A DNA stretch of 39,834 nt, from IMG/VR virus record IMGVR_UViG_2713896832_000004. One strand, 5' to 3'. Shown one piece after another: positions 3,523 through 31,610 of this stretch; the first letter of the stretch is position 1; every line of letters starts with the position of its first letter. A model generated the notes under the pieces. The model saw only the letters and a program-made list of their open reading frames with translations. It ran no database searches and was not told the origin of the DNA. The stretch is from a virus. Its lineage: Duplodnaviria > Heunggongvirae > Uroviricota > Caudoviricetes. The translations under genes were made by a program, and so were the position numbers.

Positions 3523-5841
3523 ATGAAAATTAGCGATGGAAACTGGTTGATTCAACCTGGCCTCAATTTGATTCACCCGCTTCAGGTATTCGAGGTTGAA
3601 CAGCAGGGTAATGAAATGGTGGTCTATGCTGCCCCCCGTGATGTGCGTGAACGTACCTGGCAGCTTGATACGCCTTTATTTACGCTGCGCTTTTTCTCCC
3701 CACAGGAAGGTATTGTCGGTGTGCGGATTGAGCATTTTCAGGGGGCGCTGAATAACGGTCCTCATTATCCGCTCAATATTTTGCAGGACGTGAAGGTCAC
3801 AATCGAAAACACAGAACGTTATGCTGAGTTTAAAAGTGGCAACTTAAGCGCGCGTGTCAGCAAAGGTGAGTTCTGGTCACTGGATTTTCTGCGCAACGGC
3901 GAACGTATTACCGGTAGTCAGGTGAAAAATAATGGCTACGTGCAGGACACGAATAATCAACGCAATTATATGTTTGAGCGGCTTGATCTTGGCGTTGGCG
4001 AAACAGTTTACGGTCTGGGAGAGCGCTTTACTGCCCTGGTGCGCAATGGCCAGACGGTAGAGACCTGGAACCGGGACGGCGGCACAAGTACTGAACAGGC
4101 GTATAAAAATATCCCGTTCTACATGACTAACCGTGGTTATGGGGTACTGGTCAATCATCCCCAGTGTGTCTCTTTTGAAGTGGGATCGGAGAAAGTCTCC
4201 AAAGTGCAGTTCAGCGTTGAGAGTGAATATCTCGAATACTTTGTTATCGACGGCCCGACGTCGAAAGCGGTACTTGATCGTTATACCCGCTTTACTGGTC
4301 GTCCGGCGCTGCCGCCCGCGTGGTCCTTCGGCCTGTGGCTAACCACTTCATTTACCACCAACTACGACGAAGCGACGGTAAACAGCTTTATCGATGGTAT
4401 GGCGGAACGCAATCTGCCGCTGCATGTTTTCCACTTTGACTGTTTCTGGATGAAAGCCTTCCAGTGGTGCGATTTTGAGTGGGACCCGCTGACTTTCCCT
4501 GACCCGGAAGGGATGATCCGCCGCCTGAAAGCGAAAGGGCTGAAAATCTGCGTCTGGATTAACCCCTATATCGGTCAAAAATCCCCCGTCTTTAAAGAGT
4601 TACAAGAGAAAGGCTATTTACTCAAACGCCCGGACGGTTCGCTATGGCAGTGGGATAAATGGCAGCCAGGTCTGGCGATTTATGACTTTACCAATCCGGA
4701 TGCTTGCAAATGGTACGCCGACAAACTGAAAGGTCTGGTCGCGATGGGCGTTGATTGCTTTAAGACCGACTTTGGCGAACGTATCCCAACTGATGTTCAG
4801 TGGTTTGACGGTTCCGATCCGCAGAAAATGCATAACCATTATGCGTACATCTACAACGAACTGGTGTGGAACGTGCTCAAGGACACCGTTGGTGAGGAAG
4901 AAGCTGTCTTGTTTGCCCGCTCGGCCTCCGTCGGTGCGCAGAAATTCCCGGTACACTGGGGTGGCGATTGTTACGCTAACTACGAATCAATGGCGGAAAG
5001 CCTGCGCGGTGGTTTGTCTATTGGCCTTTCAGGTTTTGGCTTCTGGAGCCACGATATCGGCGGCTTTGAAAATACCGCTCCGGCACACGTTTACAAACGC
5101 TGGTGCGCGTTTGGTTTGCTCTCCAGCCATAGCCGTTTACATGGCAGTAAATCTTATCGTGTGCCGTGGGCCTATGATGATGAGTCCTGTGATGTGGTGC
5201 GCTTCTTCACGCAACTGAAATGCCGCATGATGCCGTATCTGTATCGTGAAGCTGCGCGTGCAAACGCGCGGGGTACGCCGATGATGCGGGCCATGATGAT
5301 GGAGTTCCCGGACGATCCGGCTTGTGATTACCTTGACCGTCAATACATGTTAGGCGACAACGTGATGGTTGCTCCGGTGTTCACTGAAGCGGGCGATGTG
5401 CAGTTCTACCTGCCAGAAGGTCGCTGGACACACCTGTGGCACAACGATGAGCTCGACGGTAGTCGCTGGCATAAACAGCAGCACAGCTTCCTGAGTCTGC
5501 CCATTTATGTGCGTGATAACACCCTACTGGCGCTGGGCAACAACGATCAACGTCCCGATTACGCGTGGCACGAAGGCACGGCATTCCACCTCTTTAATCT
5601 GCAAGACGGGCATGAAGCCGTCTGTGAAGTGCCCGCTGCTGACGGTTCGGTGATCTTTACTCTAAAAGCAGCACGTACTGGCAACACGATTACTGTGACT
5701 GGTGCGGGCGAGGCGAAGAACTGGACACTGTGCCTGCGCAATGTTGTGAAAGTAAATGGTCTGCAAGGCGGTTCGCAGGCTGAAAGTGAGCAGGGGCTGG
5801 TGGTGACGCCTCAAGGGAATGCGCTGACAATTACGTTGTAA
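3523..5841 (+). CDS. yicI: Alpha-xylosidase, glycoside hydrolase family 31
   Basis: 772-aa ORF starting 9 nt after yicJ (operon arrangement). GH31-like motifs are visible (…WINPYI…, …KTDFGE…, …HWGGDC…). Confidence 0.9.
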
Positions 5842-22720: not shown

Positions 22721-22752
22721 GTCTGTAGAAAAGTAAGATGAGGAGCGAAGGC

Positions 22753-23394
22753 ATGAAACCATATCAGCGCCAGTTTATTGAATTTGCGCTTAGCAAGCAG
22801 GTGTTAAAGTTTGGCGAGTTTACGTTGAAGTCCGGGCGCAAAAGCCCCTATTTCTTCAACGCCGGGCTGTTTAATACCGGGCGCGATCTGGCACTGTTAG
22901 GCCGTTTTTACGCTGAAGCGTTGGTGGATTCCGGCATTGAGTTCGATCTGCTGTTTGGCCCTGCTTACAAAGGGATCCCGATTGCCACCACAACCGCCGT
23001 GGCGCTGGCGGAGCATCATGACCTGGACCTGCCGTACTGCTTTAACCGCAAAGAAGCAAAAGATCACGGTGAAGGCGGCAATCTGGTTGGTAGCGCGTTA
23101 CAAGGACGCGTAATGCTGGTAGATGATGTGATCACCGCCGGAACGGCGATTCGTGAGTCGATGGAAATTATTCAGGCCAATGGCGCGACGCTTGCTGGCG
23201 TGTTGATTTCGCTCGATCGTCAGGAACGGGGGCGCGGCGAGATTTCGGCGATTCAGGAAGTTGAGCGTGATTACAACTGCAAAGTGATCTCTATCATCAC
23301 CCTGAAAGACCTGATTGCTTACCTGGAAGAGAAGCCGGAAATGGCGGAACATCTGGCGGCGGTTAAGGCCTATCGCGAAGAGTTCGGCGTTTAA
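22753..23394 (+). CDS. pyrE: Orotate phosphoribosyltransferase
   Basis: Track ORF 22738..23394. The start [36 protein letters not shown]… at 22753 gives 213 aa, with a GAGG ribosome-binding site. Confidence 0.95.
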
Positions 23395-23691
23395 AAATAT
23401 GCGCTGTGCAGGGTTTTTGCTGTGCGCAGCGTGATGCGCTTCAAGATATCGTGTTAATCTGCTTTCGCCAGCAGTGGCAATAGCGTTTCCGGCCTTTTGT
23501 GCCGGGAGGGTCGGCGAGTCGCTGACTTAACGCCAGTAGTATGTCCATATACCCAAAGTCGCTTCATTGTACCTGAGTACGCTTCGCGTACGTCGCGCTG
23601 ACGCGCTCAGTACAGTTACGCGCCTTCGGGATGGTTTAATGGTATTGCCGCTGTTGGCGCCTCTTTTGGCCGCCGTGATGTGGAGAGTGGA
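23395..23691 (+). ncRNA. Putative retron msr-msd non-coding region (boundaries approximate)
   Basis: About 300 bp of non-coding sequence directly upstream of a retron-type RT, rich in local dyad symmetries (GCGCA-n6-TGCGC near 23424..23439, GTACGC-ttc-GCGTAC at 23577..23591, GCGCTGACGCGC). Exact a1/a2 and msd boundaries were not resolved by eye. Confidence 0.45.
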
Positions 23692-24651
23692 ATGGATGCT
23701 ACCCGGACAACCCTTCTGGCGCTCGATTTGTTCGGCTCGCCGGGCTGGAGCGCCGATAAAGAAATACAGCGACTGCATGCGCTCAGTAATCATGCCGGAC
23801 GCCATTACCGACGCATTATTCTTTCTAAACGCCACGGTGGTCAGCGGCTGGTGTTAGCCCCTGATTACTTGCTCAAAACCGTACAGCGCAACATTCTTAA
23901 GAACGTCCTTTCACAATTTCCGCTTTCCCCTTTTGCTACAGCCTACCGACCAGGTTGCCCAATCGTCAGCAACGCGCAGCCACACTGCCAACAGCCGCAG
24001 ATCCTGAAACTCGATATCGAAAACTTTTTCGATAGCATTAGCTGGTTACAGGTCTGGCGTGTGTTTCGCCAGGCCCAGTTGCCACGTAATGTGGTAACCA
24101 TGCTGACCTGGATTTGTTGTTATAACGACGCGTTACCGCAGGGGGCACCAACTTCGCCAGCCATTTCCAATCTTGTGATGCGCCGTTTTGATGAACGCAT
24201 AGGGGAATGGTGTCAGGCTCGGGGAATTACCTACACCCGCTACTGCGATGACATGACCTTTTCAGGTCACTTCAATGCCCGCCAGGTTAAAAATAAAGTG
24301 TGCGGATTGTTAGCGGAGCTGGGCCTGAGCCTCAATAAACGCAAAGGCTGCCTGATAGCTGCCTGTAAGCGCCAGCAAGTAACCGGGATTGTTGTTAATC
24401 ACAAGCCACAGCTTGCCCGTGAAGCGCGCCGGGCGCTGCGTCAGGAGGTGCATTTGTGCCAAAAATATGGCGTTATTTCGCATCTTAGTCATCGTGGTGA
24501 ACTTGATCCTTCTGGCGATCTCCACGCACAGGCAACGGCGTATCTTTATGCTTTGCAGGGAAGAATAAACTGGTTATTGCAAATCAACCCTGAGGATGAG
24601 GCCTTTCAACAGGCGAGAGAGAGTGTAAAGCGAATGCTGGTTGCATGGTAA
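23692..24651 (+). CDS. Retron-type reverse transcriptase (RT-only retron, Ec107-like)
   Basis: Track ORF 23680..24651 (GTG). I prefer the ATG at 23692 (GGAG 6 nt upstream), giving 319 aa. RT motifs are present: LDIENFFDSI, QGAPTSPAISNL, YTRYCDDMTF (YxDD box), and the retron-typical VTGIVVN. Confidence 0.85.
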   Translation: MDATRTTLLALDLFGSPGWSADKEIQRLHALSNHAGRHYRRIILSKRHGGQRLVLAPDYLLKTVQRNILKNVLSQFPLSPFATAYRPGCPIVSNAQPHCQQPQILKLDIENFFDSISWLQVWRVFRQAQLPRNVVTMLTWICCYNDALPQGAPTSPAISNLVMRRFDERIGEWCQARGITYTRYCDDMTFSGHFNARQVKNKVCGLLAELGLSLNKRKGCLIAACKRQQVTGIVVNHKPQLAREARRALRQEVHLCQKYGVISHLSHRGELDPSGDLHAQATAYLYALQGRINWLLQINPEDEAFQQARESVKRMLVAW

Positions 24652-24658
24652 GAAAAGC

Positions 24659-24682
24659 GTCAGGCAGACGTTTCTGCCTGAC
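24659..24682. terminator. Palindromic hairpin at the RT/slmA junction (probable slmA terminator)
   Basis: Perfect 10-bp inverted repeat GTCAGGCAGA-cgtt-TCTGCCTGAC, followed on the minus strand by CGCTTTTCTT. Confidence 0.45.
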
Positions 24683-24696
24683 CGTTTAGGGGAGAA

Positions 24697-31247: not shown

Positions 31248-31598
31248 AGTAAATAGCTGACTTATGGATGTGCTGGGGATTCTATGTATTTAGCTGTGGC
31301 TTTACCATTACTTTTCCCGTTTTTGACTTAAATAGCAATTTACCCGCCAATTCTTGCTGAACATCTATACTTTTTTTGTATTTTTATGCGATTCATTGAT
31401 TTCTGCTGTACGTGCAGGAAGGAATCGCAGAGCAACAGTGAAAGAATATGGTTGCTAATGATTTTATTTGATTGATTTCTTTATTGAAAATCAACAATGT
31501 GCTTAAAAATCATTCGGGTCGGATTGCCGCGAAAGAAGTGATACACTAGCGCGTCAATATCAGTGCGGTATCAGTATTCAGGTAGCTGTTGAGCCTGG

Positions 31599-31610
31599 GG
31601 CGGTAGCGTG
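31599..31610 (+). promoter_or_regulatory. ops element (RfaH recruitment site) in the waaQ operon leader
   Basis: GGCGGTAGCGTG found about 50 bp upstream of the waaQ start, within the long AT-rich divergent waaA/waaQ leader. Confidence 0.6.

Follow-up and report, generated by a model that had tools for sequence, protein, structure and literature searches.

Retron-Ec107 (Retron-Eco5) was described by Herzer, Inouye & Inouye (1992), as cited in PMC6868368 and PMC7736814, and is counted among the retrons with experimentally validated msDNA. In the literature the element takes the place of an intergenic palindrome of 34 bp and has no prophage context; Mestre places it beside an orotate phosphoribosyltransferase, and its reverse transcriptase (RT-Eco5) is reported with a YCDD box. 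Expression of Ec107 rises on starvation, RNase H affects the length of its product, and the element has served as an antisense and editing scaffold. It was omitted from the published defence tests, and a 2026 survey found the Ec107-like lineage to be abundant in host-associated Bacillota and devoid of accessory modules. How such effector-less retrons function is a question already posed in the literature.

Two other described systems are useful for comparison. Type III-A1 retrons (RT clade 2; Mestre et al. 2020) form the sister RT lineage and carry a PRTase-like effector together with winged-helix genes. Retron-Ec86 (Retron-Eco1), the structural paradigm, is laid out as a2, a TAGC priming G, msr hairpins, an msd hairpin, a1 and RT; it has an NDT-type effector, a prophage context, an RT with a YADD box and an msd that is a simple 86-nt hairpin.

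Here we analyzed an interval of 297 nt (23395-23691) in a stretch of 39,834 nt from the IMG/VR virus record IMGVR_UViG_2713896832_000004, referred to below as the window. The interval is almost certainly the msr-msd gene of Retron-Ec107 (Retron-Eco5), equipped with its own promoter and with the ribosome-binding site of the RT gene, an identification made because the insertion site, the insert size and the RT all match. The element is thus already known, and the present finding is a rediscovery with no discovery value in itself, Retron-Ec107 having been known since 1992 and used in antisense and genome-editing work. The likeness extends to the pyrE-slmA (ttk) site with replacement of a palindrome of ~34 bp, an insert of ~1.3 kb holding msr-msd plus one RT only, a 319-aa YCDD RT whose best PADLOC model is RT_Ec107-like, and the lack of a prophage and of an effector gene. 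No difference from Retron-Ec107 was detected in site, size, content and RT, the features on which the comparison was made. The layout is also that of Ec86, whereas the NDT-type effector and the prophage context of the latter are absent from the Ec107 locus, the Ec86 RT has YADD where YCDD is found here, and the simple 86-nt msd hairpin of Ec86 contrasts with the 107-nt, fork-tipped msd of Ec107.

Insertion site and reverse transcriptase

The window is a piece of E. coli chromosome, with yicC (minus strand), rph (plus), pyrE (plus) and the RT gene (plus) followed by slmA, dut and coaBC (all minus). The pyrE gene (22738-23394, plus strand) terminates at a stop codon at 23392-23394, from which the 297 nt of the interval lead to the RT start codon (ATG at 23692). 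The whole retron insert spans 1302 bp from the pyrE stop to the slmA stop (23395-24696, plus strand). In K-12, the counterpart between these two stop codons is only a 36-nt palindromic spacer, AGAAACTCGCCGGATGAAAAGTCATCCGGCGTCATA; with the flanking A on either side shared, ~34 bp have been replaced by the insert relative to K-12.

Of 5426 complete E. coli genomes, 382 carry the insert, in single copy on the chromosome. Over the full 1302 bp, identity reaches 99% or more in 271 complete genomes and lies at 95-99% in a further 107. RefSeq labels the RT gene 'reverse transcriptase family protein' and has no annotation of any kind over the ncRNA interval in all 382 carrier genomes, a gap that the coordinates given here fill.

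Alleles at the same site were seen in other lineages. A derivative of E. coli O127:H6 E2348/69, the EPEC reference lineage, has a 94% identical retron allele there (locus L083, 801-2099), in which the changes in the ncRNA mostly concern unpaired positions or convert G-U to G-C pairs. Pseudocitrobacter vendiensis (L003) and Enterobacteriaceae bacterium G50 (L004) have a homologous retron between pyrE and slmA (3700-4960 in both loci); identity to the window is 94-96% for PyrE and SlmA and only 68-69% for the RT. Either the retron evolves at a far higher rate than the flanking sequence, or a different allele has since filled the site again.

The RT gene (23692-24651, plus strand) encodes a retron RT of 319 aa with the motifs NAQPH (NAXXH, region X), YCDD and VTG (region Y) and a match to Pfam RVT_1 (3.5e-21). 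Its best PADLOC model, RT_Ec107-like, matches over the full length (7.3e-132), and the next-best matches are RT_III-A models (4.9e-94), in keeping with the position of type III-A1 as the sister lineage. The protein is exactly UniRef Q05804_ECOLX; among solved structures the closest is the Ec86 RT (4e-40), and its relatives in the PDB are retron RTs. The gene directly adjoins the ncRNA on the same strand, as in a retron, the two being joined by a spacer (23660-23691, plus strand) in which the ribosome-binding site GGAG can be read at 23682-85, 6 nt 5' of the ATG.

A hairpin, GTCAGGCAGACGTTTCTGCCTGAC (24659-24682), lies where the RT and slmA genes converge, at the 3' end of the insert; it is terminator-like on the minus strand (fold z -2.75) and is kept in Pseudocitrobacter and Enterobacteriaceae G50. 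It may act as a terminator.

Architecture of the msr-msd region

The interval had been proposed in an initial annotation to be a noncoding, structured leader upstream of the RT and a candidate msr/msd, a reading borne out by the presence of an a2/a1 stem, a TAGC priming G, two msr hairpins and a long msd, all of them conserved. The inverted repeats and the branching guanosine, which that annotation had left unplaced, can now be assigned. The a2 repeat forms the 5' arm of the terminal stem (23466-23482, plus strand); it was located by folding, and compensatory changes occur in each of its 13 modelled pairs, with 93.4% of cells paired. The a1 repeat, found by folding, inverted-repeat search and covariation alike, forms the 3' arm (23643-23659, plus strand) and is followed by CCTCTTTTGG. 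Together they make a helix of 17 bp (23466-82 / 23643-59), a length that was reached in 1 of 300 dinucleotide shuffles; the a1 stem plus T-run scores as terminator-like. Directly after this stem, the priming (branching) guanosine, G23483 on the plus strand, lies unpaired in T-A-G-C (23481-23484). TAGC is the commonest priming-G context among validated retrons in the literature. In 71 aligned relatives this position is G in 99%, in an A-G context.

The msr, the RNA part of the msDNA, is placed at 23466-23540 (plus strand), its 5' end being the start of a2, which is also the predicted transcription start, and its 3' end being provisional. The RNA of msDNA-Ec107 is reportedly 75 nt long with the branching G at residue 18. 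The model fits these values, as 23466 + 17 gives 23483 (residue 18) and the RNA would end at 23540. That end would overlap the 3' end of the DNA by about 5 bp; a review gives 5-10 bases for the RNA/DNA 3' overlap in retrons. Two hairpins follow the priming G on the plus strand, within the one to three described for a retron msr. In msr hairpin 1 (23487-23507), 23487-92 pairs with 23502-07, with compensatory changes in 6 of 6 pairs. In msr hairpin 2 (23508-23528), 23508-16 pairs with 23520-28, with covariation in 8 of 9 pairs and 95.6% of cells paired; its core, GCGAGUCG (G-C-G-A-G-U-C-G, 23514-23521), has bases conserved at 95-100%. Hairpin 2 is likely the hairpin that the RT recognizes.

The msd, template for the 107-nt msDNA, is predicted to occupy about 23536-23642. 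Its DNA product corresponds to the minus strand and would start opposite 23642 or 23641; the ends, good to ~2 nt, were set from the name of the element (107 nt) together with the reported 75-nt RNA and its G at residue 18. G23642, just 5' of a1, is 97% conserved. Folded as DNA, the predicted 107-nt product (23642 back to 23536) reaches -22.9 kcal/mol (z -3.5) and adopts a long stem with a forked tip. The long stem (23552-72 / 23610-30, plus strand) comprises helices 4-6 of the covariation alignment. Tip hairpin A, GTACGC-TTC-GCGTAC (23577-23591, plus strand; 23577-82 / 23586-91), is helix 7, with compensatory changes in 6 of 6 pairs and 96.7% of cells paired. Tip hairpin B, GCGC-TGAC-GCGC (23595-23606, plus strand; 23595-98 / 23603-06), is helix 8, in which 3 of 3 modelled pairs covary and 89.9% of cells are paired; relatives differ in the length of this hairpin.

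A GTAC/GTAC bracket in the msd stem (23569-23572 and 23610-23613) was observed to be 94-100% invariant across ~70 loci in Proteobacteria and Bacillota. The near-invariance of this bracket and of the GCGAGUCG core suggests that both may be recognized in a sequence-specific manner, the msr by the RT and the msd by some partner.

Upstream of a2, the interval holds a leader. A hairpin just 3' of the pyrE stop (23401-23432, plus strand) has a 10-bp stem in the minimum free energy fold, with a z of only -1.6, and Pseudocitrobacter and Enterobacteriaceae G50 have a hairpin at the equivalent post-pyrE position with changed stem bases. It lies outside msr/msd and probably stands in for the pyrE terminator or 3' hairpin displaced by the insert; plausibly, this hairpin and the one at 24659-24682 together replace the displaced bidirectional palindrome. 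The retron promoter (23431-23460, plus strand) consists of a weak probable -35 element, GTGATG (23431-36), and an extended -10 element, TG-t-TAATCT (23452-60). A strict sigma-70 scan of the window did not flag the promoter at 23452-60, which was recognized by comparing relatives: a TGnTAnnnT element stands at equal distance upstream of a2 in most of the 70 related loci, in both phyla. The predicted transcription start is at ~23466-23467.

Three short palindromes had been cited in the initial annotation in favor of msr/msd. All three exist, each one base to the left of where its text had put it, and two of them, GTACGCTTCGCGTACG (23577-23592) and GCGCTGACGCGCTCAG (23595-23610), are the msd tip hairpins. 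The remaining one, GCGCAGCGTGATGCGC (23424-23439), lies outside msr/msd: the post-pyrE hairpin takes its 3' arm from the left half of this palindrome, and GTGATG in the middle is the likely -35 element. As a part of the msr it was rejected, lying as it does upstream of the conserved promoter.

From this anatomy and from the Ec107 literature a pathway can be proposed for the locus, in line with the standard mechanism of retrons. The extended -10 promoter (23452-60) would start a transcript at ~23466 covering msr, msd and the RT gene. Pairing of a2 (23466-82) with a1 (23643-59) would set G23483 (TAGC) at the inner end of the stem, and the RT would bind the msr hairpins, probably the GCGAGUCG hairpin at 23508-28. 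Priming on the 2'-OH of G23483, the enzyme would copy the msd leftwards from ~23642 to ~23536 and stop at a fixed point, while host RNase H would remove the copied template. The predicted product is msDNA-Ec107, a 107-nt DNA with a long stem and a forked tip that is attached to the msr RNA by a 2'-5' link. Production of msDNA is reported for Ec107 in the literature and is predicted for the present locus.

Conservation of the fold and competing readings

Folding of both strands, a search for a1/a2 inverted repeats and a covariance-model scan had been suggested as checks in the initial annotation. The plus-strand RNA fold of 23460-23665 has a free energy of -93.6 kcal/mol against a shuffle mean of -70.0 (sd 4.4), giving a z of -5.4, and 0 of 200 shuffles were as stable. 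It is 14.5 kcal/mol more stable than the minus-strand fold, whose weakness is expected when G-U pairs matter. The inverted-repeat search returned the 17-bp flanking helix described above. In the Rfam scan of the region no family reached its gathering score, and only chance-level matches were listed at E values up to 10. The absence of an Rfam match is weak counter-evidence, since retron ncRNAs are too diverse for curated models.

A protein search with the RT yielded thousands of relatives, from 98% down to ~45% identity, and scanning one genome per species provided 80 related loci; most belong to gut Bacillota, the others to Enterobacterales and Neisseria. When the sequences upstream of the RT in eight of these were aligned with MAFFT alone, RNAalifold predicted a consensus with 52 pairs, and compensatory double changes were present at 32. 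The covariance model built from this eight-relative alignment found full-length matches in ~70 of the 80 loci, all on the RT strand and immediately before the RT gene; on the minus strand the model matched only over part of its length, within the palindromic msd. In the loci aligned to the model, 91.6% of cells are paired, compared with 32-46% when the partners are slid by 1-3 columns, 50 of the 52 pairs have changed on both sides, and covariation scores 0.465, where the controls do not exceed 0.088. Being fitted to the model, this large alignment is biased towards the structure; the independent eight-sequence MAFFT alignment agrees with it. The comparative set provides a clean, strongly covarying structure for Ec107-like ncRNA.

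One related locus (L061) had two separate partial matches to the covariance model upstream of its RT (3524-3631 and 3861-3926), with a tandem AAGATTATATA repeat just before the first. The ncRNA at this locus may be duplicated or rearranged.

These data bear directly on the readings that compete with an msr-msd gene. The initial annotation had itself named one, a plain promoter or leader for the RT; put in full, the interval would amount to no more than the promoter and 5' untranslated leader belonging to the RT gene, its palindromes would be incidental or regulatory (attenuator-like), and no product would be reverse-transcribed. Such a description holds at the two edges, as the first ~70 nt (23395-23465) contain the promoter and the post-pyrE hairpin and the last ~32 nt (23660-23691) the ribosome-binding site, and the terminator-like score of the a1 arm with its T-run also speaks for it. 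For the interval as a whole we consider it extremely unlikely in view of the complete architecture of a2/a1, G, msr and msd, which covaries strongly across ~70 loci, of the retron-type RT next to it, and of the place that the literature gives Ec107 among retrons with experimentally validated msDNA. Protein coding by the interval can practically be dismissed. Two open frames exist, one of 102 aa with a GTG start (23527-23835, minus strand) and one of 96 aa with a TTG start (23567-23857, plus strand), and the initial annotation had rightly found neither credible: both start at codons other than ATG, have no Pfam match and extend into the RT gene. A 1-nt indel between E. coli and Pseudocitrobacter within the interval would break the frames, and this indel and the lack of a Pfam match led us to reject coding by the two ORFs. 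More broadly, the indels of relatives are not multiples of three, the paired substitutions preserve RNA helices and not codons, and where ORF clusters in other loci overlap the RT, they represent shadow frames of that gene.

A further reading grants that the sequence is retron-derived and holds that the retron has decayed, so that msDNA is no longer made in this strain. No effector gene accompanies it, and sequence data alone cannot show activity. Against decay stand an intact RT ORF with all catalytic motifs, identical to the reference protein Q05804, and the preservation of the insert at 99% identity or more in 271 complete genomes and at 95-99% in 107 more. In addition, variants such as the allele of EPEC E2348/69 alter mostly unpaired bases or turn G-U into G-C, and the stand-alone arrangement is the norm for the Ec107 lineage. 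Loss of function in this strain is, in our judgement, very unlikely, and an msr-msd gene of Retron-Ec107 is the reading that we retain. The case also shows that a retron ncRNA can be recognized from the bare nucleotide sequence by a first-stage reader.

Gene neighborhood of the Ec107-like lineage

The only neighbors of the RT are pyrE and slmA, so that two of the components of a tripartite defence system (ncRNA, RT and effector) are found at the locus, namely the ncRNA and the RT. In a search for an effector, clustering of all ORFs of 70 aa or more from the 80 related loci revealed no conserved neighboring gene. The widespread clusters were only shadow frames inside the RT gene; the others were housekeeping genes of the host, comprising ABC ATPases, DapA and an AraC-type response regulator, in 4-6 loci each, and none occurred in more than 6 of the 80 loci. 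The locus and its relatives differ in this respect from type III-A1, with its PRTase-like effector and winged-helix genes. The pyrE gene here encodes a housekeeping OPRTase that is present with or without the retron. A stand-alone, effector-less lineage fits these observations, in agreement with the literature; the comparative set confirms the lineage as stand-alone and bears on what effector-less retrons do, without answering that question.

Tentatively, the Ec107 lineage might be a truly two-part retron, in which the msDNA itself would be the working product or would act with a partner encoded elsewhere. We regard this proposal as rather unlikely. A speculative version, restricted to E. coli and Pseudocitrobacter, is that the retron might be read through from the housekeeping pyrE gene or might work with it; it is raised by the position of the retron immediately 3' of pyrE on the same strand, by the identity of pyrE as a phosphoribosyltransferase and by the use of PRTase-like effectors in the sister type III-A1. 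As context for a two-part arrangement, the GTAC...GTAC bracket of the msDNA stem is almost unchanged among relatives, and the forked tip is conserved.

Two further elements were recognized in the window by Rfam. The selenocysteine tRNA gene, selC, lies at 1748-1838 on the minus strand (83.8 bits); selC is a well-known island integration site. On the far side of the retron, a JUMPstart element is found at 31572-31610 on the plus strand (55.2 bits), as is expected upstream of the LPS-core (waa/rfa) operon in this chromosomal region.
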